This document shows positions 1,390-49,945 of a stretch of 64,000 bases of DNA, piece by piece. Under the pieces are notes generated by a model that was not told the DNA's origin, did no database searches, and was given only the letters and a program-made list of their open reading frames with translations. Made by a program: the position numbers and the translations under genes. Source of the DNA: Akkermansia muciniphila (lineage in GTDB: Bacteria; Verrucomicrobiota; Kiritimatiellia; RFP12; UBA1067); contig CAMBQV010000001.1 of NCBI GenBank assembly GCA_945870145.1, positions 495 through 64,494 on the forward strand. Direction: 5' to 3'. Every line of letters starts with the position of its first letter. The first letter of the stretch is position 1.

Positions 1390-1752
1390 ATGACTCATAT
1401 CGTATCCCTATTTCTACTCGCCCTGTTCCTGTTGTCGGCTGGCTGTATCACGTCAACACCTGTGGCTGACTCCCGTGAACCTGAAATTCAGGTCACCTCT
1501 TCAGGGGAGATTCTCTTTGAAGAACAGACGACTACACAAGAGAATATTCTTTCCTTTTTTAAGGAACGCCAAATTACACGCGACCAGACCATCTTTATCT
1601 TGGTTCCCTCGGATCCATCAGAACGAAACACTCAAGTCATGCGCTCGCTTGTCGCCACATTGAAGCGAGCCGGTTATGGGAGAACGGTCTTTACCACGCA
1701 CCGCAAGGCCGTCTCCAATCTGAAAGGGGAAAACACAAAAGTACCCCACTAG
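1390..1752 (+). CDS. hypothetical small lipoprotein
   Basis: GGAGG RBS 5 nt upstream of ATG 1390. N-terminus MTHIVSLFLLALFLLSAGC is a lipoprotein signal with lipobox Cys. The track ORF 1288..1752 is in the same frame with an earlier, less likely start. Confidence 0.5.
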   Translation: MTHIVSLFLLALFLLSAGCITSTPVADSREPEIQVTSSGEILFEEQTTTQENILSFFKERQITRDQTIFILVPSDPSERNTQVMRSLVATLKRAGYGRTVFTTHRKAVSNLKGENTKVPH

Positions 1753-1758
1753 TTATGT

Positions 1759-1933
1759 GCAGCGGCAGTTGGCAGTGGCAGTTGGCAGTTAGTAGACTCC
1801 GTCAACACTAGGGCTACGGAGGGCAGGCGAAAAGCCCGAAACTGTATTTGTCTCTGAGTGCGTTGACGACCAGTGAGCGACGCCGCCCCGCAAGTGAAGC
1901 TAACTGCCAACTGCTACTGCCGACTGCTACTCT
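1759..1933. repeat. intergenic hairpin with arms made of tandem GCAGT(N)GCAGT units (arms 1759-1797 and 1899-1933, about 100-bp spacer, no ORF inside)
   Basis: gcagcggcagttggcagtggcagttggcagttagtag is the imperfect reverse complement of agctaactgccaactgctactgccgactgctactc. The same unit family recurs at 4994-5030, 5434-5479 and 56226-56256. Confidence 0.6.
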
Positions 1934-1949
1934 CCATGAACCCTAATAC

Positions 1950-2939
1950 TTGAAGCCATCCACCTTTAACTTTATGAAGCCAAATCCCCTGCCCATGTTA
2001 GCGTCCTGTGACTTATGCCCTCGGGAATGTCATGTGGATCGGCTTTCCGGAAAGACTGGCTACTGCAAAGCTGGCATGAACCCCCGTGTCTTCCGTCATG
2101 GACCTCATTTTGGGGAGGAACCCCCAATCAGTGGGGCTCGCGGTTCAGGCACAATCTTCTTTTCTCACTGCACGTTACGTTGTATCTATTGCCAAAATCA
2201 CCCGTGGAGTCAGGCTAACCAAGGTGAGGATCTGACGATTGAGGATCTGAGGGAACTCTTCAAGGGAATAGCCCTTCGAGGCTGCCATAACTGGAATCTG
2301 GTCTCCCCTACCCCATGGCTCCCTCAGATAAAAGAAGCGGTAAAACCCTTAATTCAGGCTGGCATCTCTCTCCCATTTGTGTATAATACATCGGGTTTTG
2401 AGTCGCCAAAGGTCTTGGCTGCGTTTTCTGAGCTCATCGATATTGCGCTCGTGGATTTGCGCTATGCCACGGCCGAAGTGGCCTCGGAAGGTTCAGATGC
2501 TACTCACTATGTTGAGGCTTCACGTCAGACATTCCAATGGTTCTGGCAGAGGCTAGGCCCTTTGGTGACCAACGAAGAAGGGCTCGCCAAAAAGGGTGTG
2601 ATCTGTCGCATTTTGGCTTTGCCAGGGCATATTGAGGAGGCGATAGCTAACCTTCATTGGTTGGCAGACACCGTAGGAACCGAAGTGGCGGTGAGCGTCA
2701 TGTCGCAGTATACGCCGGTACATGTGGCGTGCCAGCGCGAGGGGTGGAACAGGAAAGTCTCGCCAGACGAGTATACGCGATTGACTGACGTAGCCGAAGA
2801 ACTCGGCTTCGAGAACGGATGGATACAGGATTTTGAGGGCGATGCGCCGTCCGACCTGCTAGGGCAAGCTATGCCAGCGGGGGAGGGTGTCGTCGGAAGA
2901 GGCGACGAACAACGAACAGGTGAGCAAAGTTTTAGATAA
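1950..2939 (+). CDS. radical SAM protein, PflX-like (COG1313)
   Basis: N-terminal CDLCPRECHVDRLSGKTGYC cluster followed by the radical-SAM CxxxCxxC motif (CTLRCIYC). Start ambiguous among 1950, 1977 and 1995. Confidence 0.7.
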   Translation: MKPSTFNFMKPNPLPMLASCDLCPRECHVDRLSGKTGYCKAGMNPRVFRHGPHFGEEPPISGARGSGTIFFSHCTLRCIYCQNHPWSQANQGEDLTIEDLRELFKGIALRGCHNWNLVSPTPWLPQIKEAVKPLIQAGISLPFVYNTSGFESPKVLAAFSELIDIALVDLRYATAEVASEGSDATHYVEASRQTFQWFWQRLGPLVTNEEGLAKKGVICRILALPGHIEEAIANLHWLADTVGTEVAVSVMSQYTPVHVACQREGWNRKVSPDEYTRLTDVAEELGFENGWIQDFEGDAPSDLLGQAMPAGEGVVGRGDEQRTGEQSFR

Positions 2940-2964
2940 CTGGCTCAAATAAGCGAGGAAGACG

Positions 2965-3726
2965 ATGAGCGGTCATAGTAAATGGGCAACGATTAAGCAT
3001 AAAAAGGGCGCGGCAGATGCCAAGCGCGGAAAAATCTTTTCGAAAATCGCCAAGGAAATGACGATTGTCGCTAAAAACGGTGGCGGTGACCCAGGGAACA
3101 ACCCGACGCTCCGCACGTTGCTCGCCAAGGCAAAGTCCGTGAACATGCCGAATGATAACATCGAGCGTGCTATCAAGAAGGGAACTGGCGAACTGGCAGC
3201 AGACGCACTCGAAGAAATTACGTATGAAGGTTACGCGAGTGGCGGGGTTGGATTGGTCGTTAAGGTTCTGACCGACAACAAGAACCGCGCAGCCTCAGAA
3301 GTTCGAAACATCTTTAAAAAGAATGGTTCCGATTTTTCAGGTCAGGGTTCTGTTTTCCGTAGCTTTGAACGCAAGGGAACTATCATGATCCCAGCAGCCG
3401 CAGACCTCACAGAAGACAAGATCATGGAGGTCGCTTTGGGCGCAGGGGCGGATGACCTTTTGACTGAAGAGGGTGGTTTCACCGTCACCTGTCAACCGAA
3501 TGCCTTTGCTGAAGTCAGTGCGGCCATCGAAGCCGCTGGTATTGCGTTTGACCGCGAAAATTCGCAGGTCGGACTAGTCCCTCTGACAAAAGCAAATGTT
3601 AAAGATGTCGCCGTCGCCAAGGCCGTCAATAAGTTCGTCGGAATGCTGGAAGAGCACGATGACGTACAGGATGTCTACTCCAACATGGAAGTTGATGACT
3701 CCATCGCCGACCAAGTGGATGAATAG
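2965..3726 (+). CDS. yebC: YebC/PmpR family DNA-binding transcriptional regulator
   Basis: MSGHSKWATIKHKKGAADAKRGKIFSKIAKE... full-length YebC signature; 253 aa. Confidence 0.9.
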   Translation: MSGHSKWATIKHKKGAADAKRGKIFSKIAKEMTIVAKNGGGDPGNNPTLRTLLAKAKSVNMPNDNIERAIKKGTGELAADALEEITYEGYASGGVGLVVKVLTDNKNRAASEVRNIFKKNGSDFSGQGSVFRSFERKGTIMIPAAADLTEDKIMEVALGAGADDLLTEEGGFTVTCQPNAFAEVSAAIEAAGIAFDRENSQVGLVPLTKANVKDVAVAKAVNKFVGMLEEHDDVQDVYSNMEVDDSIADQVDE

Positions 3727-3865
3727 CGGAATAGCTGGAATAGCGGAATAGCTGGAATAGTGGAATACTGAGAAGCTCCGCAATCGGTGTACAGTTGTCT
3801 GTACTCCATCGTATTGAGCTTTTTAAAATATTCCTACATTCCACTATTCCAACATTCCATAAACA
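3721..3865. repeat. intergenic hairpin with arms of tandem GGAATAG(C/T) units (3721-3770 and 3828-3865), no ORF inside
   Basis: gaatagcggaatagctggaatagcggaatagctggaatagtggaatactg pairs with ttcctacattccactattccaacattccat. A related one-sided copy is at 27037-27078. Confidence 0.55.
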
Positions 3866-3891
3866 TTATACTCAAGGGGTGCTGTCTCTCA

Positions 3892-4988
3892 TGCGTATTC
3901 TTTCACGCTATATTCTTCGTGAATTTTTGGTGCCCGTGGTATATTGCCTAACCATGTTTTTGGGCATCTATATCCTGTTTGATTTGCTTAGCTCTTTTGA
4001 TGAATTGCTCGCGGCTAAGCCACCCTTCCTCACTGTACTCGCTTACTTTATTGGATACCTCTCTCCCTACTTTATCTATCTCTTTCCCGCGACGCTGATG
4101 CTCTCAGCGCTCTACACGATGTGGAATTTCTGCCGTCACAGTGAAGTCACCGCGATGCGCGCAAATGGGATTGGGTTCATCGTCATTGTACGTCCTCTAT
4201 TACTCGTCGCCACCTGCGCCATGATTCTGGTCGCCGTCCTGAATGAGGTATACACGCCAGGGGCTGCGGAGTGGGCATCGAAATTCAAGCATGATGATTT
4301 CAAGCAGAACACGAAGACCCTCTGCGATTTCGTGGTCTACAAAAACCAGCTGGAACACCGTTACTGGACGATCAATCGCATGGATACCCAAAAACCCGGC
4401 ATCCTGGAGGGCGTAGTGCTCACGCTGCTCCGAGAGGACGGGAGCTTAATGCTGAAGATCACGGCCCGACGAGCTGAATATCTCGATGGCGTGTGGTGGT
4501 TCTTTAATCCCCAATATCAGTACTTTGATGAACTCAACGAGCCCGTCGCCAACCCTTATAAGGCTCTAGAGTCCCTCTCAATCCGTTCGTTCCCGGAGCT
4601 TTCCGAGACGCCTCGTGATTTTTTGGTCATGAATAAAAAACCCGAGCATAGCACAACACGGGACCTGTTGGTTGACCTAAAACAAAATTCACTTCTCAGC
4701 AAGCAGGAAAGATGTGTCAAGCTCTATGATATTGGAGCGCGTCTCATCGCGCCGTTTTCCTGTCTGGTCATCACGCTCTTTGCGATTCCAGCAGGGGTTG
4801 TCACAGGACGTCAAAGTGTATTCTTTGGTATCGTCTCTGCGGTGGCCATGTTTTTCTCCTTTTATGGGACGGTCATTCTCTGCGAAATCCTCGCAAAAAA
4901 CATGTTTCTCCCTGTCTCCTTTGCGGTCCTCTTCCCAAATCTATTATTCCTCTGCATCGGGATCTATCTCTTCTACCGCCAGCGGTAA
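3892..4988 (+). CDS. LptF/LptG family LPS export permease (YjgP/YjgQ)
   Basis: MRILSRYILREFLVPVVYCLTMFLGIYILFDLL... typical LptF/G N-terminus with 6 TM segments. The track ORF starts earlier at 3795 inside the repeat; ATG 3892 preferred. Confidence 0.8.
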
Positions 4989-4993
4989 AGGGT

Positions 4994-5479
4994 CAGTTGG
5001 CAGTGGGCAGTAGCAGTCGGCAGTGGCAGTTTTTATTACAACTTGTCTGAGCAGAGAACACCAAATTTCTCGGGGTGATCCATCATATATCCCAAAAGTT
5101 TTCCAACATCTCCATAACGGGAAGCGAGTTGCTCAAATTTTTCTGGTGTTATGTAACCGCAATCCTTTGCAAAGCGCAACCAAACACCTGTCTCACTTGC
5201 TTCGCCATCTGCATCTGTAAGTTTCGATAAGTAATGCTTCAGATAACTTCTCTTACGATAGGCTTCAGCCGTATTCGCGCATACCGAACGAGATGAACGT
5301 CGAATCTGATCAGTCAGCGAATACCTTTCCTCAACTGGAAAGTTTTTTGACAATTCAAAAATCTGCATTGCGCCTTCGTAAGCTAATTCAAAAACCTTTA
5401 ACCCTTCAACACCTTTTTGCATCTCTATCCTTTCACTGCCGACTGCTACTGCCAACTGCTACTGCCGACTGCTACTGCC
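4994..5479. mobile_element. IVS-like hairpin element: GCAGT-repeat inverted arms (4994-5030 and 5434-5479) enclosing a four-helix-bundle protein gene
   Basis: Left arm cagttggcagtgggcagtagcagtcggcagtggcagt is the reverse complement of right arm cactgccgactgctactgccaactgctactgccgactgctactgccc. The enclosed gene belongs to the 23S-rRNA intervening-sequence protein family. Confidence 0.5.
5036..5422 (-). CDS. four helix bundle protein (23S rRNA intervening-sequence protein / DGR Avd-like family, PF05635/TIGR02436-like)
   Basis: MQKGVEGLKVFELAYEGAMQIFELSKNFPVEERYSLTDQIRRSSRSVCANTAEAYRKRSY... The ERYSLTDQIRRSSRSVxANIAE motif is diagnostic. The track ORF extends to 5455 into the repeat; ATG at 5422 preferred. 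Confidence 0.8.
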   Translation of the reverse strand: MQKGVEGLKVFELAYEGAMQIFELSKNFPVEERYSLTDQIRRSSRSVCANTAEAYRKRSYLKHYLSKLTDADGEASETGVWLRFAKDCGYITPEKFEQLASRYGDVGKLLGYMMDHPEKFGVLCSDKL

Positions 5480-5484
5480 CTCCC

Positions 5485-6375
5485 TTACTCGACATTCTGG
5501 ACCTGTTCACGGGCGGCTTCTAGTCCAGCCTTAAAGACAATCACGAGGCGTGTAATTTCGGCATCATTTGCCTTCGAGCCTGTCGTGTTAATCTCTCGAA
5601 ACATCTCTTGGCAGAGAAAGTCGAGTGTGCGACCTGAGGCGTGACCTTCCAGAAGCGCCTTCTCGACTTGCACAAAGTGACTGGCGAGTCGGGTCATCTC
5701 CTCGCTGACATCACAGCGATCAGCAAACACCGCAACCTCGCGCGCGAGCAAGGCGGGATCGACCACGTTCTTTGTGCCGTCCCCCAGCAACTCTACCAGA
5801 CGCTTTTCAAGCGTGGACTGATACCGTTTGGGCACTGCCAAGGCTAACGGTGCAAGCGCCTCGCTCAAAACCTTCAGCTCTTGAAAACGTTGCTTTAGGT
5901 CCACAGCCAAGGCCTCGCCTTCATGGGCACGCATCTGGCAAAGCTTCTCTAAGGCAAGCTTGGTCGCCTTCTCAAGCAAACCCCACAACGCCTCTGGGTC
6001 TTCAAAAAGCGCGATGTTATTCATGGCCTCTGGAAGTTGTAAGAGAGACGTGATCGAGAGATCATCCGTGAGCGCCAGTTGGCCTGCAGCCTCTCGCAAC
6101 TCGGCGATCTGCGCCTTGACACGTTCCATATTCAAAAGGCGTGACGTCTGCCCCTCTTGCGCGGCCTTGACCATGACGTTCCCCTTCACATACCCGCGTG
6201 AGATCCTTGCATGCAACAGTGCATGAATCTTGGACTCCAGACAGCCCAATTCTCGGGGGAGCGAGAGCGAACAATCAAACTGTTTGCGATTCACGGTACT
6301 GAGCTCAACAACAACTTTAATCCCTTGCTCACTGATCTCGCCTCGCCCGAAGCCTGTCATGCTGATAATAGCCAT
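5485..6375 (-). CDS. yicC: YicC/YloC family endoribonuclease
   Basis: MAIISMTGFGRGE... N-terminal YicC signature plus C-terminal DUF1732-like region; 296 aa. Confidence 0.85.
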   Translation of the reverse strand: MAIISMTGFGRGEISEQGIKVVVELSTVNRKQFDCSLSLPRELGCLESKIHALLHARISRGYVKGNVMVKAAQEGQTSRLLNMERVKAQIAELREAAGQLALTDDLSITSLLQLPEAMNNIALFEDPEALWGLLEKATKLALEKLCQMRAHEGEALAVDLKQRFQELKVLSEALAPLALAVPKRYQSTLEKRLVELLGDGTKNVVDPALLAREVAVFADRCDVSEEMTRLASHFVQVEKALLEGHASGRTLDFLCQEMFREINTTGSKANDAEITRLVIVFKAGLEAAREQVQNVE

Positions 6376-6391
6376 ACGTTACCTCGAAGGA

Positions 6392-6429
6392 ATTGCCTTA
6401 TTGCGTGATTGCCTTATTGCCTTATTGAA
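6392..6429. repeat. tandem ATTGCCTTATTGC repeats upstream of kor operon
   Basis: attgccttattgcgtgattgccttattgccttattg. The same unit recurs at 36531-36613. Confidence 0.5.
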
Positions 6430-6573
6430 AATCCAAATACAACATTGGATGTGTTTTATATTTTAACTTTTTTTGATGGAGAAAGCCAATCTGAAAACAT
6501 AAAACAGGCTTGTTATTTTGGCTCATTTGCGTTAAGGTAGAGGTCTATTTTTTTATATCGGAGAACCGAAAAC

Positions 6574-6807
6574 ATGGCGAGTACGGAGACCCTGAGGACA
6601 GGCATTCCCCATCCCGTAATTAATGCAGATGAATGCAAAAGTTGCACGCGGTGTATTGTGGCCTGCCCAAAAAAATGTCTACGCCTCTCTGACCACCTCA
6701 ATCGTCGAGGGGTCAAGCCTGTCGAGTACAGTGGCGAGGGATGCGTCGGCTGTGGCATCTGCTTCTACACCTGTCCGGAACCGTATGTCCTTGTGATCGA
6801 GAAGTGA
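6574..6807 (+). CDS. korD: 2x[4Fe-4S] ferredoxin, delta subunit of 2-oxoacid:ferredoxin oxidoreductase
   Basis: Two CxxCxxCxxxCP motifs ([24 protein letters not shown]); 77 aa; immediately precedes the alpha subunit. Confidence 0.8.
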
Positions 6808-9317: not shown

Positions 9318-10364
9318 CTAGAAGTATTTCCTGACAGCTTGCTGGAACTGTTCCATGAATAGGGCCTTGAAGTAGGAAACATTGTTCTGTTCATAAAAGA
9401 GCAACATTCCTTTCTTATATTCCACTTCATCCACACTTCGATAGGACAAAGGACAATAATGGTATGCTAGCAAAAGGGCATTGCCAAGAATACGCGACGT
9501 ACGTTTGTTTCCATCTTCAAACGGTTGGATATACGAAAGCATCAGGACGGTGATAAGCGCCTTCTCTATCGGGTGCATCGTCTGATTGACAAGGACGCAT
9601 AAGTCACGCAGGGCCTCTTGGATTTGAAAAACATTATCCAATGGCCTATAGTTTGTCCCTGTAATGCGAACCAAGTTCTTGCGTATGCCATGCATCACCC
9701 CAAGATCTTTGACCAGCAAACGATGAACCTCCTCAATCTTTGCAACCGTGAGTTCTTTGAAAAGATCAGCGCTTTTGATGACAAAGTCCAACGCATCTTT
9801 GTGGTTCAGAATCATGATGGCCTCTTCCTTAGTCTTCCCTGTTGCTTCGACATGTTCTTTTAAGAGTCGCTCCGTATCGAGCAAGGTATAGGTATTACCC
9901 TCAATTTTTGAGGATTTCCAGGAGAGTTCAATGGTCAACCGCTCCAGCTCTTTCTGAAGTACGACAGGTGTGAGGGCCGCCCTGTTCTTCCGATATTGCT
10001 CATTCAGGAGGTCACTTTCACGCTTCTCCTCCTCTGTCAGCAACCCTGTTAAATGTGGCCAAATTTCAAAATTGAAGTTCTCGGATCGCAAGACACGTTG
10101 ATCAGACTCCTGCTCAAAGTAGGACTTCACATCCAAAGTATCGAGAAGGAGCGACCTTGCGGAGGGCTGATAGGTCGTTCCCCTACCCGCTCCGAACTTT
10201 ACAACAAGGCGATCTTCAATTAAAAGCTCCAAATCCCGCAATATTGTAATACGGGAGTTTTTTTCAGAAAAGGCTTTTGCTACAGCGCCCTCAAGCTCCT
10301 GCCGAGAGACCTTCTTTTGTGACTTGATATACCCAAGTATCCACTCTTGCCGTTTATTGTACAT
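9318..10364 (-). CDS. Fic/DOC family protein with N-terminal winged-helix domain and degenerate Fic motif
   Basis: Core IQPFEDGNKRTSRILGNALL aligns to the Fic motif HPFx[DE]GNGRxxR, with His replaced by Gln and the second Gly by Lys. N-terminal region ELEGAVAKAFSEKNSRITILRDLELLIEDRLV is wHTH-like. The track ORF extends to 10409; ATG 10364 (MYNKRQ) preferred because the upstream palindrome would otherwise be coding. Confidence 0.7.
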   Translation of the reverse strand: MYNKRQEWILGYIKSQKKVSRQELEGAVAKAFSEKNSRITILRDLELLIEDRLVVKFGAGRGTTYQPSARSLLLDTLDVKSYFEQESDQRVLRSENFNFEIWPHLTGLLTEEEKRESDLLNEQYRKNRAALTPVVLQKELERLTIELSWKSSKIEGNTYTLLDTERLLKEHVEATGKTKEEAIMILNHKDALDFVIKSADLFKELTVAKIEEVHRLLVKDLGVMHGIRKNLVRITGTNYRPLDNVFQIQEALRDLCVLVNQTMHPIEKALITVLMLSYIQPFEDGNKRTSRILGNALLLAYHYCPLSYRSVDEVEYKKGMLLFYEQNNVSYFKALFMEQFQQAVRKYF

Positions 10365-10378: not shown

Positions 10379-10420
10379 TCGTATCATTTTTGCACCCGAA
10401 TCGTATCATTTTTGATACGA
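10379..10420. promoter_or_regulatory. candidate operator: direct repeat TCGTATCATTTTTG x2 (22-bp spacing), the second forming perfect palindrome TCGTATCA-TTTT-TGATACGA
   Basis: Repeats at 10379-10392 and 10401-10414; palindrome at 10401-10420, about 40 bp upstream of the preferred Fic start. Confidence 0.35.
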
Positions 10421-10455
10421 AAGCGCAAGGTCTTTAGCTATATTTGGGGCGAAAT

Positions 10456-13216: not shown

Positions 13217-14599
13217 CTATGCCTTTAAGACCCAGCCATTGAACATGGGGGATGCCTTCAGCTTGTCAGCTTCGGGATCGTTCACAAAACACTCGGTCTT
13301 GGGATTCCACTGAATCTTGTTGCGTCCAAGGCGCAACCCGATATTGGCCAAATGCGCAATCGAGATCGAGCGATGTCCAATTTCACACGTGCAGATGGTG
13401 GGTTCGCCGCCGTAGATACAGTCAATGAAGTTGCCCTCATGGCGGGCGCTCTTGTAGAGGCGAACAGACTTGTCATCCAACTTGGTACGGATGAGCTCCG
13501 CGGGCGTGGTCTCAAGATTGCCACGTGTCACAAAGATCTTTTTTCCTCCCTCGCCGTAGAAAGTAATCCCATTCGTAAACGCATCACTCACAAAGACACG
13601 CGTCCCTTCCTCATAGACCACCTCAAAGGAGTAGTGCGCAGCAGTGTTTAGAATCTTGTCGCGAGAGGGCATGTCGCTCTTGAGATTTTCAATTGCGACG
13701 GGGCCCGAGTCATCCTTGCCCAAGGCCCACTGAACAATGTCCAAGTGATGCGCACCCCAGTCCGTAATTGCACCGCCAGAATAATCCAGATTATTACGCC
13801 AGGTCATGTTGCGATGCAAGGCAGGGATGTAAGGGCGTTTCTGAGCTGGGCCCAGCCACAGATTAAAGTCCGTCATCCATTCCGGTATGGGTGCCGGTTC
13901 TTGCGAAAAGTCTGCATCGCTCTTCTTCCAGCGGAAGTGGCCTCCTGGGAGACCGACCTCAATCTTCTCAAGTTTGCCGATCACGCCATTACGAATAAAT
14001 TCGCACGCCATACGAAAATAATTGTCAGAACGTTGCTGGGAGCCGACCTGGAAGGTTACTTGGTTCGCCTTGACCGTATCAGCCATATAACGGCCCTCGG
14101 CAATGCAATAGGACATCGGCTTCTGACCATAAATATGAAGGCCCTTGCTGGCGGCATAGACCGTCTGGAGTCCATGCCAATGATCGGGTGTGCTGATCAG
14201 CACGGCATCTAATTTTTCCTTTTCAATCATCTCTCGAAAATCAACGTGGGTGGTACAGGCCTTGTAGCCTGGCTGGTTTAGCTGTTTGGCATAAAATTCA
14301 TCAATGATTCGCTTTCCGGCAAGACGTCCACCCTTGCGGTTCGGATCTGAAGAATATCCATGACATCCTGTTTCGGAAACAGGATCCGCCACGGAGACGA
14401 CCTGAACCTTGTCGTTATTTAAAAAATTGCCGATGTTATCCCCTGCCATGGTACCAAATCCGATCACCCCGAGCTGGATACGTGCGGAGGGAGCGGGGCG
14501 TCCCTTACCCAAGGCTCCGATCGGAATGATATACGGAGCGACAGCAGCAGTCCCTAATCCTGAAACAAAGGAACGACGTGAAACATGTATTTGATTCAT
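13217..14599 (-). CDS. Gfo/Idh/MocA family oxidoreductase with twin-arginine (Tat) signal
   Basis: SRRSFVSGLGTAAVA Tat motif; Rossmann GxGxxG region; conserved STPDHWH, GxQxRS, VGLPGG and HHLDIVQW blocks shared with the other two paralogs in the window. Confidence 0.8.
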   Translation of the reverse strand: MNQIHVSRRSFVSGLGTAAVAPYIIPIGALGKGRPAPSARIQLGVIGFGTMAGDNIGNFLNNDKVQVVSVADPVSETGCHGYSSDPNRKGGRLAGKRIIDEFYAKQLNQPGYKACTTHVDFREMIEKEKLDAVLISTPDHWHGLQTVYAASKGLHIYGQKPMSYCIAEGRYMADTVKANQVTFQVGSQQRSDNYFRMACEFIRNGVIGKLEKIEVGLPGGHFRWKKSDADFSQEPAPIPEWMTDFNLWLGPAQKRPYIPALHRNMTWRNNLDYSGGAITDWGAHHLDIVQWALGKDDSGPVAIENLKSDMPSRDKILNTAAHYSFEVVYEEGTRVFVSDAFTNGITFYGEGGKKIFVTRGNLETTPAELIRTKLDDKSVRLYKSARHEGNFIDCIYGGEPTICTCEIGHRSISIAHLANIGLRLGRNKIQWNPKTECFVNDPEADKLKASPMFNGWVLKA

Positions 14600-14822
14600 A
14601 ACAGACTCCTGATAGGTGACACCCTTTTGAAAAAGAATCTTTTTAGTATGAACCTACAGCCCTCATAAATCAACAAAAAAGGGGAGTGAAAAACGGGCTC
14701 ATGCTTGTATTCACAACGGAAATACGTTATCCTATGGCACCTATGAACCTCTGTTTTATGACGCATAAAATGGAGTTGTGAAAAATTAACATGCGGAAAC
14801 CCGCATTTAGGAGGAAAACCCC

Positions 14823-21950: not shown

Positions 21951-22186
21951 TTTAACGCGAAAACCGCAATAAGAAGGGTGGTTATCACGTCTGCCTCACG
22001 CTGAATACAGCACGGCAGAACGGATAACCACCCAGATAAAGTGACTTTCATTTTCATCAGCAAAAAACGAGTTTTTTGCTGATGAAAATTAGTATGATTC
22101 AGCGCAAATGTCCGCTCCGCCGTCCATGTATTCATGGGTGAGGCGGGCGTGACATTTGCGCTCTTCTTTGCGGCTTTTGCGTTAAA
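21951..22186. mobile_element. MITE-like composite repeat, copy A (about 25-bp TIRs TTAACGC(G/A)AAAACCGC...; internal hairpin modules)
   Basis: 5' tttaacgcgaaaaccgcaataagaag versus 3' ctcttctttgcggcttttgcgttaaa are inverted. Internal 60-nt module gcgcaaatgtccgctccgccgtccatgtattcatgggtgaggcgggcgtgacatttgcgc is shared with copy B at 29830-30068. Confidence 0.6.
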
Positions 22187-24557: not shown

Positions 24558-26804
24558 TTAGAGTCCTGTGTGAAAGGTGCGCGCAATCACTTCATCCTGC
24601 TGTTTGCGGCTCAAGCGTGTAAAGTTGACTGCATACCCGGAGACGCGAATGGTCAACTGCGGGAAACGTTCCGGATGGGCCTGCGCCTCCAGCAGTTGTT
24701 TCCTATTCAAGACATTCACATTGAGGTGATGGCCAGCCTGTCCGAAATACCCATCGAGAATCTGAGTCAGGTTGGTCGTCTGTTCTGGAAGGACAGGACC
24801 GAGGCTCTCGGGTGTGATGGTAAAGGTGCAACTGATGCCGTCACGGCAACTATCATACGAAATGCCCGCCACAGAGTTCAGCGAAGCCAAGGCTCCGCGA
24901 CCATCGCGATTGTGCATGGGATTGGCCCCGGGCGCAAAGGGCTTACCCGCAGGGCGTCCATCGGGGGTCGCGCCTGTCGCGCGTCCATAGACCACATTCG
25001 AGGTGATGGTCAATACGGAGAGGGTGTGAATGGCATTGCGATAGGTGGAATTCTTTTTCAGTCCTTGTTCAAAGTCTTTGACCAACTCTTGCGCCATGCG
25101 ATCCACGCGCTCGTCATCATTCCCGTAACACGGGAACTCCCCCTCGATCCTGAAATCAATAGCCAGTTCACGGTCATCCTGCACAGGCGTCACGCGGGCA
25201 AAGCGAATGGCGCTCAAGCTGTCCGCCATGACCGAGAGACCTGCCAGTCCGAAGGCCATGAAGCGTTCCACGTCAGTATCATGCAGGCTCATCTCCAACT
25301 TCTCATACGCATACTTGTCGTGCATGAAGTGGATAATGTTCATGGTATTGACATAGAGCTCGCAAAGCCAGTCGGCATAGAACTGGAATTGCTCTTTCAC
25401 CTGCTCATAGTTTAGCTTTGCTCCTGTCAGCAATGGACGCTCCGGCGCAATCTGAAGTCCAGAGGGTTCATCCCTGCCTCCATTGATCGCGAGCAGCAAC
25501 ACCTTGGGCAAGTTACACCGTGCGCCGAAGTACTGCATCTGCTTGCCGATCTTCATGGCCGAGACGCAACAGGCGATGCCGTAATCATCACCGTATCGGG
25601 GACGCATCAAGTCATCATTCTCATACTGAATCGAATCCGTCTCGATGCTGACCTTCGCGCAATACCTGCGAAACGCGACGGGCAACTGCTTCGACCAGAG
25701 GATCGTGAGATTAGGTTCCGGTGCATGTCCAAGCGTATAGAGCGTATTCAGGAAGCGATACGTGGTCCGCGTCACCAAGGTACGGCCATCCTCGCCCATG
25801 CCTCCCAACGCCTCTGTAATCCACATCGGATCCCCGGCAAAGAGATCATTGTATTCGGGTGTCCGGAGCTGACGCGCCATTCGTAACTTCATCACAAACT
25901 GATCCACCAGTTCCTGTGCCTGAGCCTCCTGAAACAAACCATTTCGCAGATCGCGCGCAATATAGATGTCCAGAAATGAACTCACACGGCCGAGGGACAT
26001 CGCTGCGCCATTCTGCTCTTTAATAGCACCTAAGTAGGCGAAGTAAACCCACTGGAAAGCCTCTTGGGCCGTGCGGGCAGGAGTGGATATATCCAGTCCA
26101 TACGCAGCCGCCATCTCTTTGAGTTTCTGGAGGAAATCCATCTCCTTCCACAACTCCTCACAGCGCCGGATCGTCTCTTCGGTCATGGGTGTCGCAGCAA
26201 GAGTGTCTTTGTCCTGTTGCTTATCTTTGATCAACGCGTCAACCCCGTACAGTGCGACACGCCGGTAATCGCCAATGATGCGTCCGCGGCCGTAGGCATC
26301 CGGGAGGCCCGTGATATACCCATACTTTCGCAAGAGCAACATGGTTTGGTTATAGACATGAAACACGCCATCATTGTGTGTTGTCCGATAAGCGCACGCC
26401 CGTTCCACCTCTTCACCCAGCTTGTATCCATAAGCCTCGCACGCCTGGCGCGCCAGTCGCAGACCGCCAAAGGGATTAACGCCACGGCAGAGCGGCTTCT
26501 CAGTCTGCAGCCCCACAATCAGCTCATTCTCGCGATCCAGATACCCCGGCGTATATGTCAGGAGGGAGGAGACCACATTGACATTCACATCAAGAACGCC
26601 CCCTTTTGCAGCCTCCTGGCGCAAGAGCTCCTGAAGCTTCAGGTTCAAGGCCTGCGTACGGGGGGTCGGTCCGGAAAGAAAGGACTCATCACCCCCATAA
26701 GGGGTCACGTTTTGCTGGATAAAATCGCGGACGTCGATGGCGTGTTGCCAACCGCCGGAATGGAAGCCTTGCCAGGCTGTTTCACATACTGCCGAACTCT
26801 TCAT
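24558..26804 (-). CDS. pflB: formate C-acetyltransferase (pyruvate formate-lyase)
   Basis: 748 aa; glycyl-radical motif RVSGYAVNF near the C-terminus; PFL fold throughout. Confidence 0.9.
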
Positions 26805-27036
26805 GCTGGGCGTACTCCTTGTCTCTTATGACATTGATCAGGGCGCCCAGGCGGTCGGCAGTTAAACGATACAGTCCCTCGTGGTGTCAACCCACACACA
26901 ACATGTCGTTGCGTTTCCGCCAGTCCTGTATCGAAGAAATTGTTTTAAAGTGTACCTGATTTTCTCTTCGGATGCCACTCTTTTTAGGTGACAACCGCGG
27001 AACCATGATTTATCCTTAACCCCGACGAAAGATAGA

Positions 27037-27078
27037 CTGGAATATTGGGATGCTGGAACAATGGAATACTGGAAGAGG
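27037..27078. repeat. tandem (C)TGGAATA(T/C)TGG units just upstream of P-type ATPase start
   Basis: actggaatattgggatgctggaacaatggaatactggaagagg; same unit family as the 3721-3865 hairpin. Confidence 0.4.
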
Positions 27079-29829: not shown

Positions 29830-30068
29830 TTTAGCGCAAAAACCGCTAAGAAGAGCTCAAATGCCTCGCCCGCCTCACCCGTGAATACACGGACGGCGGA
29901 GCGGGCATTTGAGCTGGCAATAAATCTTCTACATTTAATTACTGTGAACACTAGTCATGAGTAATTTAACGCTTTCTTAAACTTCCGCGAGGCTATCCAT
30001 TCCGCCGTCCATGTATTCATGGGCGAGGCGGATGAGATAGCCTCGCAAAATTTGCGGTTTTTGCGTTA
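29830..30068. mobile_element. MITE-like composite repeat, copy B
   Basis: TIRs agcgcaaaaaccgctaagaag and gcaaaatttgcggtttttgcgttaag. Contains the 60-nt hairpin module twice, once inverted (29851-29912) and once direct with a different stem (29984-30045). Lies between convergent ATPase and cstA ends. Confidence 0.6.
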
Positions 30069-36530: not shown

Positions 36531-36646
36531 ATTGCCTTATTACCGCTTCGCTTTCGGCGTTCGCCTAATGGTTACGGCTACGTAACGAGCCTCATTGCCT
36601 TATTGCCTTATTTTTAACATTCGTGTGGTTCGTGCCATTCGGATGC
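36531..36646. repeat. ATTGCCTTATT repeats plus dispersed 34-bp repeat (inverted copy of 62586-62616)
   Basis: attgccttatt at 36531 and 36592-36613. cattcgtgtggttcgtgccattcggatgct (36617-36646) is the reverse complement of agcatccgaatagcacgaaccacacgaatg at 62584-62613. Confidence 0.45.
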
Positions 36647-36692
36647 TAAAAAAGTTGGCAGTCAGTTTGTCCCCGTTTGGCGAGCGGGGAGC

Positions 36693-39768: not shown

Positions 39769-39831
39769 GCGTCATAGTATACGCGTTTGATGCGCTTATA
39801 TTCAAGGTGCATTTTTTCAATAAATCCGTAC

Positions 39832-41643
39832 TTACGTTGCCGGGATCAGGCGCAGGGCAGAGACGCGGATGTTTCTGCCCTCTGCGGTGGTCGGGCCGAA
39901 GACGAGTTGCTGCGCGCCGGGTTTCGGAAAGTCAATGACGCCCACGCGGGTGGTGCGGAAACGTGGCAAGGCACCGCCAAAGGCTTTGCGGGTTGCCCGC
40001 TCACCAGTGTCAATCAAGGGGAAGGTCACACGGGTGTCACCGCAGTTTATACCCCACTCCGAGTAATCGTCGTCAGCAGGGCAGGTGTACTCCACATCGA
40101 GGTAGAAGGAACCGGGTGCGACGGTATTGAAGTTCCACGTTACAGAAGGCTCGCTCCCTTTCCAGTCACCCACGCACTCCATGTGTTTCCAGTCGCCGAA
40201 CTTTTCCATCCAGTTGACAGCCTTTATTTCGCACCCCTTCAAGTTCGCCATGCCCATTTCCAGGGTATTGTGGCAGCCGTTCAGCACATACAAGTCACGG
40301 CGCGCATCGATGGGTCCTGACAGTTCCAATGTGATGACTGGAATGAGCGTATCAGGACGCAGCTTCGGAACGTGGAGGATGAGGAGTTTCTCTTCATGTA
40401 CGACCTTGATGATCTCCCCTTCCAGTGTCGCCCGCTTGACCTTGGACTGGAGTCCCGGCAAGATGAGCTTGCCGTTCGAGGGCCATTGGAATACATGCAT
40501 AAAAAGTGTGTTGCCGCGTGCGGTACACTCGCCCCAGGGGATCGGGCCGAAGGGGGTTGAGTCTGTACCGTGAATCGCGTCTTTATGCGCATGGACCCAC
40601 GTGCCGACCTCGCGCAGGATGCGAGCCGACTGCTCGGGGATGTGTCCCTGACCGTCAGGTCCGACATTCAGCATGTAGGTTCCGCCGCGGCTGACCACAC
40701 GGACCAGCCGTTCAGCGATCTCGCTGGGGCTTTTCCAGTTGCGGTCATACCAGGCGTAGCCCCAAGTGTCGTTGGCGGTGTCAGGTGTCTCCCACAGGCC
40801 GGGACGTGGGAGGCGCGGAATCTCCTGGTCGCCAAGCGTGTCGTAATCGCCAAGCCCGTTGCCGATGCGGCTGTTGGCGAGACACTGAGGCTGGAGTTTG
40901 TGGACAAGGTCGACGAGCATCTTGGACTCCTCGGGTGTGATGGGTCCTGGAGTGTCAAACCAGACGCCGGCAATCGGACCGTAGTTCTTCAGCAACTCCT
41001 CAAGCTGAGGAATCGCCTTGCCTTTGAGATAACGTTGGAAATCGGCTTCGCTCTCTTTAAAATCCCAGTCATTGCCGATGGCGTCGCGCTCATGCCAGTC
41101 CTGCGATTGCGAATAGTAGAAGCCCAGCCGCAGACCGCCCGTGCTACAGGCCTCAGCCAGCTCTTTCATGGGGTCACGCTTGAAGGGCGTGGCATCCACG
41201 ATATTGTAGGGGCTGGTAGCAGACTTGAACATGGCGAACCCCTCGTGGTGTTTCGCCGTGATCATGACGTGGCGCATCCCGGTGTCTTTCGCAAGCTGGA
41301 CCCACTCCTTGGCATCGAACCCAACGGGGTTGAAACGGGATGCCACCTTCTCGTATTCAGCGACCGGAATTCGAGCTCGTTTCATGATCCACTCGGCGAT
41401 TCCATACTGGGACGTGTTGTTCCATTTGTTTCCTAGTTCGGAATAAAGTCCCCAGTGGATAAACATCGCAAAGCGCGAATCCTTTAGCCACGCCCCGCGT
41501 ACGGTGTTGGTCATTGATTTCCCCGTGCCCCACATGGCTGTCGAGGTGCCATCCACGGAGATCACACGCTCAGCCGCGCAGGAAAAAATGCACGAGAAGA
41601 TCAGCAAGCCTGCTGTGGTTCGGAATAATAGATTATTGTTCAT
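39832..41643 (-). CDS. alpha-L-fucosidase, GH29, secreted, with C-terminal beta-sandwich domain
   Basis: Signal peptide; FAMFIHWGLYS, ITAKHHEGFAMF and GNDWDFKESE motifs typical of GH29; 603 aa. Confidence 0.8.
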   Translation of the reverse strand: MNNNLLFRTTAGLLIFSCIFSCAAERVISVDGTSTAMWGTGKSMTNTVRGAWLKDSRFAMFIHWGLYSELGNKWNNTSQYGIAEWIMKRARIPVAEYEKVASRFNPVGFDAKEWVQLAKDTGMRHVMITAKHHEGFAMFKSATSPYNIVDATPFKRDPMKELAEACSTGGLRLGFYYSQSQDWHERDAIGNDWDFKESEADFQRYLKGKAIPQLEELLKNYGPIAGVWFDTPGPITPEESKMLVDLVHKLQPQCLANSRIGNGLGDYDTLGDQEIPRLPRPGLWETPDTANDTWGYAWYDRNWKSPSEIAERLVRVVSRGGTYMLNVGPDGQGHIPEQSARILREVGTWVHAHKDAIHGTDSTPFGPIPWGECTARGNTLFMHVFQWPSNGKLILPGLQSKVKRATLEGEIIKVVHEEKLLILHVPKLRPDTLIPVITLELSGPIDARRDLYVLNGCHNTLEMGMANLKGCEIKAVNWMEKFGDWKHMECVGDWKGSEPSVTWNFNTVAPGSFYLDVEYTCPADDDYSEWGINCGDTRVTFPLIDTGERATRKAFGGALPRFRTTRVGVIDFPKPGAQQLVFGPTTAEGRNIRVSALRLIPAT

Positions 41644-41663
41644 CGAGTTTTATCCTTTGTCTA

Positions 41664-44126
41664 CTATTGGGTTTTCAGTCGCCATGTGGAGGTCGGTTTG
41701 TTGTCCAGCGGCAGATTGTAGGTCAAGCTGTAGGTTCGGCTGTCATCGTCATAGTCGGCCTGCCAAAAATCATTTCCGTGGACGCTCTGATCGAGCCGAA
41801 CCTCTTTGCCATCCACCACTTCCGACAGCACGGCATCCTTGATCGATGCGAGCCCTTCAATGCGGAGTGGTACATATCCGAGGCCGCCTGCGATGGTAAC
41901 CTCGACAGCGGGCTTTTCGGCCTGGATCAAAATTGGGTAGCGGTTCAAGAGCTTTCCACCGCGCGCCGTCACACGCAGGTCGTTTCCGATCGCCTCGCGA
42001 TAGGTCGTCTTCCAGGATGACGGATTTTCGACGAGATGTTTTCTGAAATTTTCGTTCGGGCCATAGTAGTCATCAGCCGTGCGGTGAAGGGTAATCCACT
42101 CGACATCCATCTCGATCATGTCGCCGGGTTTGAAGGCCGTGACCTCGCGTGGCGGCACGAGGAGAAGGTCCACGTTCGAAATCTCCATTTTGGGGCCGTG
42201 CACAGGTACGGAGACTGGGAAGGAGACCGTCGGCTGCGTATAGATCTTGCCGTTGATCATGGCCGTATAGGAGCGGATCACAAAGGCGCGGTAGCCGGTT
42301 CCCCAGTCACGTCCATTGGTGTGTTTCGCGCCCGGGAATGCGCCCCACCAGGGACCCTTTCCTTCCAAGGCGAGACGGTCGATGAAGCACTGGCCGGCCT
42401 TCAGGCCTAAGGGGACGTCCTGCTCGGCGAGGAGTCCGTCCCGGTTGCCGTAGGCGACTTTGGGCGTGGCGTACTGGCCTGTCTTCCCCTGTCGATAGAA
42501 GGAGATGTTCGTGTTTGCGACAGGCACGTTAAATGTGTATCGGAAGTGCTGGAAGGTCCGCGCATAGTCGTCCGTGCGCAGGGTGTGAACTTCAGCCTTC
42601 ATTGCAACTTCACGCTGTGCGCCATAGAATCCTGAGTAACGGACATCGGTGAGGCAGGGACCCTGCGACAGATAGGCGGTCTTGAGATCTTTGAACGCGA
42701 GCTTGTTTCCCTCCGCATCCAGCATCTCGAACCAGTCGCCGCCCCAGCCGGCATCGGTCCAGTTCCACTTCTGGCCATTCAGGCCGTTTCGTGCCATGAG
42801 CATGCGCACGTCCGTCACGACCAGATTCACAAGACTCATGTCCATATCGAAGCAGATCGTCTCGCCCCAGCAGCCGATGGCCAGCTGGTCCCAGCGTCCG
42901 TTGCCGCCTTTGTTGTGATAGCCAATCAGGGACAACTGAGCATGACTCGAAGAGGGCAGCGTGCCATAGAAGCCATACGCCACGCGCAGGAGGTACTCCG
43001 TACGTCCCGGCTTTACGAGCAGGGAGGTGTAGGCCATCAGATAGGCGCCCATGGCCTCATAATGCCAGTTCTTACTCAGTTGCACAGGGATGCCCGTGGG
43101 CCGTCCCTCCTTGTCGCAGAGCATGGGGCAGAGGCCAGTGATATTGGCCGGCGAACGGAAGTCGAGCAGGAAGGGAATCTCTTTTGTCTGCGTCTCCGTA
43201 CTGTCAACCGTAATCAAAAAATCGTCATAGTCCCGGATGTCCGTATACCCAGCCTTGAACGTACGCTTGATTTTTGGCGCCTTTGCTACAAAGCAACTCT
43301 TTGTCGGCTCATACGCCACAGGGAAGACGTTGTTCGTCCCTGAGGTCACTTGAACAGAGAACTTTTCCGTAGAAATGACTCTCCCAGGATATGCATACGT
43401 CAGGGTCACCGCATTCGTTATCGAAGGAAGCCATACGTCAGCAAATGCTTTTTCACTCCGGCAGTCAACGCCGCTTCCCTTGAGCTGAAAAGCAATTTTT
43501 GCATTGTTCCATCCAGCTCCGTCTCCTACGGCCGGCGCGAGTGAAGCGGTCAGCGTCAGGGAGTCCGGCCAGGCGACCAGGTCCAAGTTTGCTTTGCAGT
43601 TCAACGTTTTTCCTGAAGCGGTTTGAAACTTGAGATCTTCAAACTCGAAATGTTGAACAAAGCGTCCTGATTCCCACATTTTTGCGAAGCCGAGTCGCCT
43701 GGGGTCAGGATCTGTGCCTGCTGCGCAACTGACCGCGCGATACTGCTCGCCGTTCACCTCGAGCATGAGGAGTAGCTCTGGCGTGGGGAGCCGGTATAAG
43801 GGATCTGTACTGGCCGTCAGCATGGATGTGTAACTCAAAGGCCCTGCCACTTCGGAGGAGAAGCCCGCGTTTACAAAGTTGGCCATGTCCAAGGTAAAAG
43901 CATAGCAGCTGGCCTGGATCGCTAGAATCTCCGGGCTCTTATCCGTCTTGTACTTGCGCCAGCCGTTCAGCCAGCAGGCGTATGTGTAGCCGGAGGCACG
44001 CAGGGGTTGTATTGCCGGAATAGGTTCCGCTTTCTTTTCGATCCCTTGCTTGCATCCGAAAAACAGGCCTGAGAAGGAACCCAGAATAACAATCATCACT
44101 ACAGTCATTAAATAGTTTTGCCTCAT
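41664..44126 (-). CDS. hypothetical 820-aa lipoprotein, no recognisable family (possible novel glycan-active enzyme)
   Basis: Lipoprotein signal MTVVMIVILGSFSGLFFGC. Full-length ORF with no overlap conflicts, embedded between the GH29 and GH95-like genes on the same strand. Confidence 0.55.
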   Translation of the reverse strand: MRQNYLMTVVMIVILGSFSGLFFGCKQGIEKKAEPIPAIQPLRASGYTYACWLNGWRKYKTDKSPEILAIQASCYAFTLDMANFVNAGFSSEVAGPLSYTSMLTASTDPLYRLPTPELLLMLEVNGEQYRAVSCAAGTDPDPRRLGFAKMWESGRFVQHFEFEDLKFQTASGKTLNCKANLDLVAWPDSLTLTASLAPAVGDGAGWNNAKIAFQLKGSGVDCRSEKAFADVWLPSITNAVTLTYAYPGRVISTEKFSVQVTSGTNNVFPVAYEPTKSCFVAKAPKIKRTFKAGYTDIRDYDDFLITVDSTETQTKEIPFLLDFRSPANITGLCPMLCDKEGRPTGIPVQLSKNWHYEAMGAYLMAYTSLLVKPGRTEYLLRVAYGFYGTLPSSSHAQLSLIGYHNKGGNGRWDQLAIGCWGETICFDMDMSLVNLVVTDVRMLMARNGLNGQKWNWTDAGWGGDWFEMLDAEGNKLAFKDLKTAYLSQGPCLTDVRYSGFYGAQREVAMKAEVHTLRTDDYARTFQHFRYTFNVPVANTNISFYRQGKTGQYATPKVAYGNRDGLLAEQDVPLGLKAGQCFIDRLALEGKGPWWGAFPGAKHTNGRDWGTGYRAFVIRSYTAMINGKIYTQPTVSFPVSVPVHGPKMEISNVDLLLVPPREVTAFKPGDMIEMDVEWITLHRTADDYYGPNENFRKHLVENPSSWKTTYREAIGNDLRVTARGGKLLNRYPILIQAEKPAVEVTIAGGLGYVPLRIEGLASIKDAVLSEVVDGKEVRLDQSVHGNDFWQADYDDDSRTYSLTYNLPLDNKPTSTWRLKTQ

Positions 44127-44182
44127 TTTTAACCTTCCTTCTCCAGTGGCTCTCTGCGCGGATCATATCCCGACCAGAGATC

Positions 44183-49902: not shown

Positions 49903-49945
49903 AAACTATTGTCTCGGACGTGGATGTTGCCAAGCAAGGTGCCGC

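Follow-up and report, generated by a model that had tools for sequence, protein, structure and literature searches.

The stretch of DNA analysed here, hereafter the window, comprises 64,000 nucleotides (nt) of a contig labelled Akkermansia muciniphila (GenBank assembly GCA_945870145.1, contig CAMBQV010000001.1, positions 495 to 64,494 of the forward strand). Between its protein genes lie short tandem repeats, often arranged as two inverted arms around a loop (Table 1). Each arm repeats a 6-8-nt unit 3-10 times in tandem, and the loop holds either a short spacer (0-120 nt) or a gene for a protein of ~125-250 amino acids (aa) of the families TIGR02436, TIGR04258 or TIGR04256.

Tandem-repeat arms and their cargo genes in the window

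We detected arrays with Tandem Repeats Finder (TRF) and the pairing of arms with an inverted-repeat scan over the 64-kb window, and both place the arrays and paired arms where a previous reading, made from the letters without database searches (the sequence-only reading), had put them. At a TRF score of at least 40, the window contains 16 arrays, against a mean of 0.7 (maximum 3) in Markov shuffles, and at a score of at least 50 it contains 12, against none in 50 kb of E. coli K-12. Although ~92% of the window is coding, 15 of the 16 arrays are non-coding. RNA folding gave stems of 25-45 bp at five loci, each with a negative z-score (Table 1). The design of two inverted tandem arms proposed for four loci holds at all of them, but the spacers between paired arms range from 28 to 123 nt and not from 60 to 100 bp, and the one-armed arrays that had been listed are likewise present. 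In contrast, the claim that each locus uses its own unit does not survive. There are at least seven different units within the 64 kb by TRF, but GCAGTNG is common to the loci at 1759, 4998 and 56226, ATTGCCTT occurs both at 6392 and at 36531/36589, and CACAAAG is found again at a second locus upstream of the window (within 7 kb; contig L001, 6463-6920). A 19-mer, ACTGCCNACTGCTACTGCC, has nine matches at three loci of the window. The elements also recur beyond it, with three further ones in the 7 kb upstream (contig L001) and many in related genomes.

Two of the loops or flanked intervals contain an open reading frame (ORF) for a four-helix-bundle (4HB, S23p-type) protein, at 5036-5422 and 60174-60917, and those at 1759, 3721 and 56106 do not. 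The gene at 5036-5422 (minus strand, 128 aa) matches TIGR02436 with 94 bits and PF05635/PF22296, and the nearest solved relatives of its product are PDB 2RLD and 2GSC, each with five chains. The gene at 60174-60917 (minus strand, 247 aa) encodes a 4HB followed by a suffix and a Zn ribbon (TIGR04258, 58 bits; TIGR02436, 29.5 bits; PF05635; PF01396). The view that these two genes form further elements of the same kind is right for 4998-5480, which has inverted arms; the second gene is flanked by direct arrays (60097-60132 and 60934-60967), and the inverted partner lies farther out, at 61076-61157. A third type of cargo, GxxExxY (TIGR04256, 118 bits), is present in L001 and falls in the PDDEXK_3 nuclease-fold family of Pfam. 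The 4HB family also includes Avd, an accessory protein of diversity-generating retroelements. A search of viral contigs gave no relative of the window 4HB gene. The loop at 1793-1899 had no blastn match among the fetched loci that would mark a 4HB remnant, no protein-level search of this loop having been made.

The cassette at 4998-5480 occupies the spacer between the LptF/G stop codon (4988) and the YicC stop codon (5485), leaving 9 nt at the former end and 4 nt at the latter, and its arms stop 12 nt short of the ATG of the 4HB gene and resume 4 nt past its stop codon. Since there is no room for a promoter in this cassette, the arms must be part of the transcript. They pair in three registers at 90-96% complementarity, and the stem closes the whole mRNA. 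We read this and the other loci as one family of small hairpin cassettes, built like the ORF-bearing intervening sequences (IVS) of 23S rRNA but standing between protein genes, and give this reading a probability of roughly 0.55. The finding itself is real and is neither an artefact nor a set of terminators.

Table 1. Tandem-repeat elements of the window, with their parts, pairing measures (z, z-score of the RNA fold) and setting.
Element	Position	Strand	Parts	Measures	Setting
ORF-less hairpin	1759-1933		5′ arm GCAGTNG x5 (1759-1792); loop 1793-1899; 3′ arm ACTGCYR x4-5 (1900-1933)	arms 93% complementary, 107 nt apart; stem ~30 bp; z -6.1	between 120-aa ORF (1390-1752) and radical-SAM gene (2034-2939)
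ORF-less hairpin	3721-3865		5′ arm GGAATAGC x5.6 (3721-3767); 3′ arm TATTCCNN x4 (3829-3865)	z -7.5	whole YebC-LptF/G spacer
Cargo cassette	4998-5480	-	arm GCAGTNG (4998-5031); 4HB gene (5036-5422); arm ACTGCYR x7 (5434-5480)	z -4.2	LptF/G-YicC spacer
One-armed array	6392-6427		ATTGCCTT x4.5		YicC/ferredoxin divergent spacer
One-armed array	27036-27074		ACTGGAAT x4.9		upstream of P-type ATPase gene
Two direct arrays	36531-36612		ATTGCCTT at 36531-36545 and 36589-36612; then 30-nt motif CATTCGTGTGGTTCGTGCCATTCGGATGCT (36618-36647)
One-armed array	55305-55339		ACTAACGC x4.4		fills spacer from stop (55342) of short-chain dehydrogenase/reductase (SDR) gene to DeoC-like start
ORF-less hairpin	56106-56199		arm CACAAAG/CACGAAG x3 (56106-56138); arm CTTTGTG x3 (56167-56199)	loop 28 nt; z -3.8	between IclR-type and SDR genes
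Conserved module	56205-56276		TTCGTTTATTCCCGGG; one-armed ACTGCCNACTGCT array (56226-56255); GC-rich hairpin GTGCCGCC-CCCA-GGCGGCAC (56257-56276)
Composite cassette	60097-61157	-	CGAYTGAA array (60097-60132); 4HB-suffix gene (60174-60917); direct array (60934-60968); 108-nt spacer; long inverted array TCGWTCAG x10 (61076-61157)	pair 60934-60968/61076-61157, z -5.2; outer pair 60097/61076, inverted score 21
Motif and array	62586-62656		reverse complement of 30-nt motif CATTCGTG (62586-62615); self-complementary AACRTTG x5.4 (62619-62656)		between GFO/IDH/MocA and URO-D genes

Flanks and polarity of cargo genes in other genomes

Eighty loci were picked from metagenome contigs by similarity to the 4HB protein alone, and 69 of them were distinct and had usable flanks; as the protein was the sole basis of the choice, the sample is blind to the flanks. 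This protein-seeded metagenome scan replaced local phmmer/HMM searches for 4HB proteins, which were insensitive and had missed the 4HB of contig L002 (see below). Complementarity between the 130-nt flanks exceeded the 95th percentile of 73 control ORFs at 53 of the 69 4HB genes, against ~5% of the controls. TRF arrays were found upstream of 50 of these genes, downstream of 50 and on both sides of 38, and the array density was 3.0/kb beside a 4HB gene compared with 0.96/kb elsewhere in the same contigs. Stems have a median length of 31 bp, with arms usually of ~4-5 units; the median distance from the end of the 5′ arm to the start codon is 30 nt, and that from the stop codon to the 3′ arm is 13 nt. 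Period 7, with period 8, dominates among the arrays of related loci. Loop sizes are bimodal: 85 inverted array pairs in 879 kb include 62 with loops of 0-120 nt, none of 250-350 nt and 11 of 350-500 nt, and the real cases of this last class hold 4HB genes.

The comparison also showed that the arm unit travels with the clade of the cargo. Units differ between 4HB clades (GCAGT, xCAGT and TCAGA/TCGGA), and GCAGT arms accompany 4HB1 homologues in metagenome-assembled genomes (MAGs) labelled Chloracidobacterium, Bacteroidales, Pyrinomonadaceae, 'Akkermansia', Lentisphaerales and Flavobacteriales. When genomes were scanned for the 19-nt motif of the arm, at least 110 stretches were returned, compared with ~17 expected from uniform base composition; most are in MAGs whose labels are Bacteroidota, Acidobacteriota, Lentisphaerae, Kiritimatiellae and 'Akkermansia', and six of them adjoin a close 4HB1 homologue. 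CACAAAG arms, the unit of the ORF-less hairpin at 56106-56199, likewise flank GxxExxY homologues down to 57% identity in unrelated contexts, and the 57%-identical protein, encoded next to a reverse-transcriptase gene, has this unit in reversed order. Directly downstream of a reverse-transcriptase (RVT_1) gene, L223 and L224 carry a GxxExxY cassette with CTTTGTG/CACAAAG arms. A nested hairpin is present in a Pyrinomonadaceae MAG (L097, 7214-7330), where outer GGATGAG and inner GCAGT/ACTGC arms share one stem.

That units go with cargo clades across phyla and contexts would also suit self-mobilising mini-elements, whose cargo protein would recognise the array of its own unit and thereby bring about insertion, excision or homing into loops. 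Protein-binding arrays, one of the possibilities named in the sequence-only reading, may likewise be an apt description in view of this tie. The arms would then be protein-binding sites first and stems second, and the ORF-less hairpins would be non-autonomous copies in the manner of MITEs (miniature inverted-repeat transposable elements). The number of units per arm and the median stem length, set beside the five chains of 2RLD and 2GSC, fit this explanation, as does the placement of GxxExxY in a nuclease-fold family. We know of no binding or nuclease activity for the 4HB or GxxExxY cargo proteins, which counts against it; moreover, 4HB and GxxExxY are unrelated folds, yet they share the same arm design, and the tie is explained equally well if arms and cargo are inherited as one unit. 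We consider this alternative rather unlikely.

Because an inverted pair gives one and the same reading from either strand, polarity is a genuine feature of the element. The 5′ arm is the purine-rich one in 60 of 66 non-redundant pairs (p = 3e-12), and in 26 of 32 when the GCAGT units, which had been selected by the search, are excluded. The 69 4HB loci comprise 25 with CAG upstream and CTG downstream, one reversed, two direct and 41 too weak to call. Stop codons follow the same polarity: 5′ arms close 1.74 of the three frames compared with 0.70 for 3′ arms (p = 8e-7), and all three frames are closed in 23 of the 66 5′ arms, against 11.1 (maximum 19) in composition-matched shuffles. Units of 7 and 8 nt rotate a stop codon through all frames.

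These properties bear on the view that the arrays are a neutral by-product of mutation, with long simple sequence repeats (SSRs) of 5-11-nt units expanding by slippage in non-coding DNA, inverted copies arising by template switching and the nearness to genes being incidental. An excess of heptamer SSRs is on record for many bacterial genomes (Mrazek 2007, as cited in PMC4692102), period 7 dominates here as well, copy number varies by strain, and some arrays look as if seeded by a local stop-codon sequence; thus, the stop codon of YebC (GAA TAG, 3721-3726) belongs to the first GGAATAGC unit. On the other hand, it does not account for the threefold denser arrays beside 4HB genes and their complementary flanks, the strict polarity rule, the excess of three-frame stops over the composition expectation, the same 19-nt arm sequence in many phyla or the bimodal loop sizes. 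The neutral reading is therefore already disfavoured, and we regard it as improbable.

Turnover and conservation between strains and species

An exact-protein look-up of YebC returned five metagenome contigs, namely one identical to the window, two at ~99% and two (L002 and L004) from a sister strain with 94-98% identity to the window. Every repeat element of the shared 14 kb differs in this sister strain. The GCAGTNG hairpin at 1759-1933 is absent from L002 and L004, which have 17 nt in its place. At the site of the GGAATAGC hairpin between YebC and LptF/G, L002 has a hairpin of another unit, CAGTGATCAGT. Where the window has a GCAGT arm, the 4HB gene and an ACTGC arm between LptF/G and YicC, L002 has an ORF-less GAATGCGC hairpin with only the right ACTGC arm kept. 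Between the genes for SAM synthetase and AdoHcy hydrolase, L001 carries CACAAAG arms around the GxxExxY gene; arms and leader are the same in L002, where the loop is 12 nt long. The 6392 site of L002 contains more array copies together with the 30-nt CATTCGTG motif. Hence, presence/absence polymorphism between close relatives, which the sequence-only reading had proposed to look for, is found both for a whole hairpin (1759) and for a cargo gene (GxxExxY).

A 71%-identical GxxExxY gene, with the same CACAAAG arms, occupies the same SAM synthetase/AdoHcy hydrolase site in other samples. This presence in related species indicates that the cargo-bearing state is ancestral and that the empty hairpin of L002 is derived by loss of the cargo. 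In the same way, the replacement between LptF/G and YicC, with one arm kept, accounts for one-armed arrays such as 56226-56255, which adjoins a hairpin of another unit just as the ACTGC arm of L002 does. Single sites thus show that an ORF-less hairpin can be a cassette that has lost its cargo, and that a one-armed array can be the remnant after the other arm and the cargo were replaced.

For the 3′ part of the window, exact-protein look-ups of the products of 55342-56076, 56277-57194 and 61241-62587 gave no matches, and the comparison was obtained through the 4HB-suffix protein instead. In this second set of strains (L197-L201, 97% identity), the elements at 55305, 56106-56255, 60097-61157 and 62619 are kept with 0-1 mismatch; the 55305 array is identical in L197, and region 60920-61245 has one mismatch to L197. 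Together with the differences in L002 and L004, this retention implies that turnover is patchy and not uniform. In the L108 orthologue of the CACAAAG hairpin at 56106, both arms carry the same 21-nt block change, which points to copying between arms at the DNA level. RNAalifold found only one compensatory pair among four orthologous CACAAAG hairpins, because the aligner misplaced this two-sided change, which is plain by eye.

The change of both arms as one block in L108 and the rapid turnover between strains can also be counted in favour of the self-mobilising mini-elements considered above. A comparison of the filled and empty states at 1724-1960 with L002, however, gave neither target-site duplications nor a clean insertion junction, which speaks against them.

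Several observations made alongside concern the elements themselves. A module of ~70-100 nt (GTTTATTCCCGGGG, an ACTGCC array and a GC-rich hairpin), represented in the window by 56205-56276, emerges from an alignment of nine loci of related MAGs; several loci in such genomes (bin-0330, OW818680 and ELA499) have it, and it adjoins a hairpin of a different unit at each. The identical 30-mer CATTCGTGTGGTTCGTGCYATTCGGATGCT stands beside a tandem array at 36618-36647 (plus strand) and 62586-62615 (minus strand); it is also present in L002 (11110-11150), L044 and L108 and is itself a degenerate run of CACGAAY-type units. The metagenome contigs L200, L201 and L199 have ends that fall in or beside tandem arms, one such end being 70 nt upstream of the 4HB-suffix gene, and the arrays appear to break short-read assemblies.

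Other differences between the strains involve neighbouring genes. The Fic-domain gene at 9318-10364 (minus strand), with a 22-nt tandem duplication TCGTATCATTTTTGNNNCGAA at its 5′ end (10379-10421), is present in the window and in L001/L003 and absent from L002/L004. The GFO/IDH/MocA oxidoreductase gene at 13217-14599 (minus strand) is absent from L002, which has 11 nt against 13246-14643 of the window. In L197, the DeoC-like gene is joined directly to an FGGY kinase gene, so that ~15 kb of large ORFs (39769-54637) have no counterpart, and a RelB/ParE toxin-antitoxin pair takes the place of the 32 nt (63700-63731) that the window has between its tRNA methyltransferase and URO-D genes.

Known element classes, proposed mechanism and significance

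The sequence-only reading had offered terminators or attenuators as one possibility, which finds no support. No T-run follows the stems, several hairpins lie between co-directional genes of apparent operons, and a terminator scan of the window gave nine sites against 7.6-7.9 expected, of which one alone overlaps an element, namely the self-complementary array at 62626-62652. As there is no enrichment, we reject the reading of the elements as terminators. Promoter-like sites were not enriched in the window either. Against Rfam 15, the region 1500-6600 gave no match with E <= 1, and 55200-62800 only a chance-level match outside the elements.

CRISPR and repetitive extragenic palindromic (REP) sequences had been set aside from the start, and both classes indeed fail on their defining features. 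CRISPR arrays have 24-48-nt repeats with unique spacers, whereas the units here are 6-8 nt and run head-to-tail without spacers. Like REP, bacterial interspersed mosaic elements (BIMEs) and REPINs, the elements are numerous intergenic hairpins, often within operons and variable between strains; those classes, however, share one consensus, are not tandem and are tied to REP-associated tyrosine transposases (RAYTs), whereas the arms here differ between elements. At least seven units in 64 kb give no single consensus, and no RAYT is among the window genes annotated with Pfam/NCBIfam. The likeness to MITEs is that short ORF-less copies keep the inverted ends of a longer ORF-bearing element, but there is no transposase, no target-site duplication at 1724-1960 relative to L002 and no terminal sequence common to all copies, and this class was rejected as well. 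Integron attC sites, considered by eye, look unlikely, as there is no R′/R″ core and no array next to an integrase.

Two further features were noted. A second, unrelated family of ~60-nt hairpins (22101-22162, 29854-29915 and 29980-30053), with a core CCGCCGTCCATGTATTCATGGGYGAGGCGG bracketed by TTAACGCGAAAACCGCAA and TTTGCGGTTTTTGCGTTAA and a further copy upstream of the window (L003, 223-497), looks REP-like and has no tandem-unit arms. A perfect 19-bp palindrome at 22050-22089 (ATTTTCATCAGCAAAAAAC/GTTTTTTGCTGATGAAAAT, 2-nt loop) with A/T runs may be a bidirectional terminator.

Close parallels come from the ORF-bearing 23S rRNA IVS, known from Coxiella and Leptospira. In Coxiella burnetii, the IVS has a 28-bp stem of terminal inverted repeats with an S23p (4HB) ORF in its loop, and the start codon is preceded by two or three GACAGAT heptamers in tandem together with a degenerate one. 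Strains differ in the number of these repeats, and the 5′ RNase III cut falls at the first of them (PMC4990558). Excision of IVS by RNase III is described for Coxiella, Salmonella and Leptospira (PMC4990558). The elements described here share with the ORF-bearing IVS the paired inverted-repeat stem and the 4HB (PF05635) ORF in the loop, and with that of Coxiella also the tandem heptamers and a CAG-type unit upstream in the same polarity. They differ from IVS in that both arms are tandem arrays throughout, many units occur per genome, most copies are ORF-less and the cargo can also be GxxExxY or a 4HB-suffix protein; cutting by RNase III is proposed here by analogy. The suggestion of decayed, IVS-like elements that have lost their 4HB cargo is nevertheless a part of the sequence-only reading that is borne out and can be widened: tandem arms are a trait of the 4HB family, the same arms enclose GxxExxY or a 12-nt loop, an empty hairpin was found to be derived, and the Coxiella heptamers lie in a stem cut by RNase III (PMC4990558).

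The arms themselves are best filed as the heptamer and octamer SSRs that have been known from bacteria for a long time. Cyanobacterial short tandemly repeated repetitive (STRR) sequences are said to have been described by Mazel in 1990, and according to Vioque (1997) STRR arms reportedly lengthen helix P12 of RNase P RNA; the function of STRRs and of other long SSRs has been unknown since about 1990. Like STRRs and long SSRs with units of 5-11 nt (LSSR5-11), the arrays here are non-coding tandem heptamers with several unit families per genome and variable copy number, and their over-representation in non-coding DNA agrees with this class. Unlike here, STRRs have been described as arrays and not as paired arms around cargo, and the host here is a bacterium of the Planctomycetes-Verrucomicrobia-Chlamydiae (PVC) group, with Kiritimatiellia and Lentisphaerae MAGs as its closest named relatives. 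We found that on Nostoc plasmids GCAGGGA x4 immediately precedes the ATG of 4HB genes, whose stop codon is followed by CCCTGC repeats, that Leptolyngbya plasmid 4HB genes have flanks of the same pattern, and that in Oscillatoria direct purine arrays lie on both sides. In Xanthomonas, 70-75 convergent GGGAATC heptamer pairs per genome, intergenic and capable of forming stem-loops, are transcribed and conserved between species and were read as G-quadruplex motifs (Rehm et al. 2015, PMC4692102). The supplementary table of that study places one array at the start of XCC0516 (PMC4692102), which is the 4HB protein of PDB 2GSC. In contrast to the window, there is one unit per genome in Xanthomonas, and no cargo link, cargo polymorphism or polarity rule was reported. 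In the literature searched, which mostly excluded subscription journals, no paper ties non-rRNA 4HB or GxxExxY genes to tandem-repeat arms.

Several results weigh against the hairpin-cassette reading. IVS of 23S rRNA lie in helix 9, 25 or 45, whereas the window elements lie between protein genes and none in an rRNA helix, so that they are not rRNA IVS in the strict sense. Most window arrays have no cargo and several no partner arm; some 4HB genes have direct arrays or none, a Novosphingobium GxxExxY copy inside fabD-fabG has an upstream array only, and loss of cargo is documented at one site only. No transposase or other mobilising enzyme and no target-site duplication was seen. Mismatches within the arms are of G-U type in 87 cases and of A-C type in 76 (p = 0.43), which is no RNA-specific signature, so that the sequence alone is silent on a role as RNA or DNA and the stems could matter as DNA. 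Finally, elements remain near-identical (0-1 mismatch) between strains whose flanking genes differ by 3%, and the CACAAAG hairpin at 56106 is kept at the orthologous site across species (MAGs L069, L042 and L108). Such conservation could mean a function for the host and not a selfish insert. As a separate observation, an Rfam gathering scan of the window gave no rRNA and only a ZMP/ZTP riboswitch (pfl motif, 55 bits; 26838-26937, minus strand) directly upstream of a pyruvate formate-lyase-like gene (24558-26804), a known arrangement.

If they served the host, the hairpins would be operon RNA elements that set mRNA ends, protect upstream messages by blocking 3′ exonucleases or uncouple neighbouring genes, with the small genes as occasional passengers; REP and BIME sequences are thought to act similarly on mRNA in enterobacteria. 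Besides the elements that are more conserved than their flanking genes and the hairpin kept across species with a two-sided block change, this explanation can draw on hairpins that fill whole intercistronic spacers of co-directional genes, on the YebC-LptF/G site, which has a hairpin in both strains though the units differ, and on the transcribed and conserved Xanthomonas pairs (PMC4692102). It is weakened by the simple absence of one hairpin (1759-1933) from the sister strain, by the lack of a U-tract, of terminator enrichment and of a bias of G-U over A-C in the arms, and it leaves the tie between unit and cargo clade and the bimodal loops unexplained. We consider it unlikely.

Returning to the cassettes, they most likely work as rRNA IVS do, by analogy with those systems. 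A cassette would be transcribed with the host operon, and its arms would form a long double-stranded stem that is cut by RNase III, as in rRNA IVS; the insert would thereby be parted from the host mRNA. Ribosomes entering from either side may be halted by the stop-rich first arm, which would provide translational insulation, and with tandem arms pairing would persist through slippage and be possible in several registers. Spread and turnover probably occur at the DNA level through the arms, either by exchange between arrays of the same unit or by copying of one arm onto the other as candidate routes.

A wider proposal, which we regard as doubtful, is that bacterial heptamer and octamer arrays in general (STRRs, the GGGAATC repeats of Xanthomonas and the arrays of PVC bacteria, Bacteroidota and Acidobacteriota) are the footprints of one tiny and widespread class of mobile element. 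Each would be a hairpin cassette with a cargo protein of ~125 aa, either a 4HB protein forming a pentameric ring or a GxxExxY protein of PD-(D/E)XK fold, which would guide insertion into hairpin loops by recognising the array of its own unit; the 23S IVS would be the special case in which the landing site was a helix of rRNA, and the non-autonomous progeny would be the ORF-less hairpins. It is a matter of speculation that a telomerase-like extension of 3′ ends would give both inverted tandem arms and fixed polarity.

In summary, the elements form an object with rules, in that the tandem arms are paired, the purine-rich arm comes first, the unit is linked to the cargo clade and the loop is either empty or ~400 nt long. 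This ties together three puzzles that were kept separate for decades, namely the heptamer repeats of bacteria, the nature and spread of rRNA IVS and the role of the abundant 'hypothetical' 4HB and GxxExxY proteins, and opens each of them to tests in carriers that can be cultured, among them Nostoc, Xanthomonas and Bacteroidota. At the level of genomes, the arrays apparently break metagenome assemblies, and they are hot spots of strain-level difference between otherwise near-identical genomes.

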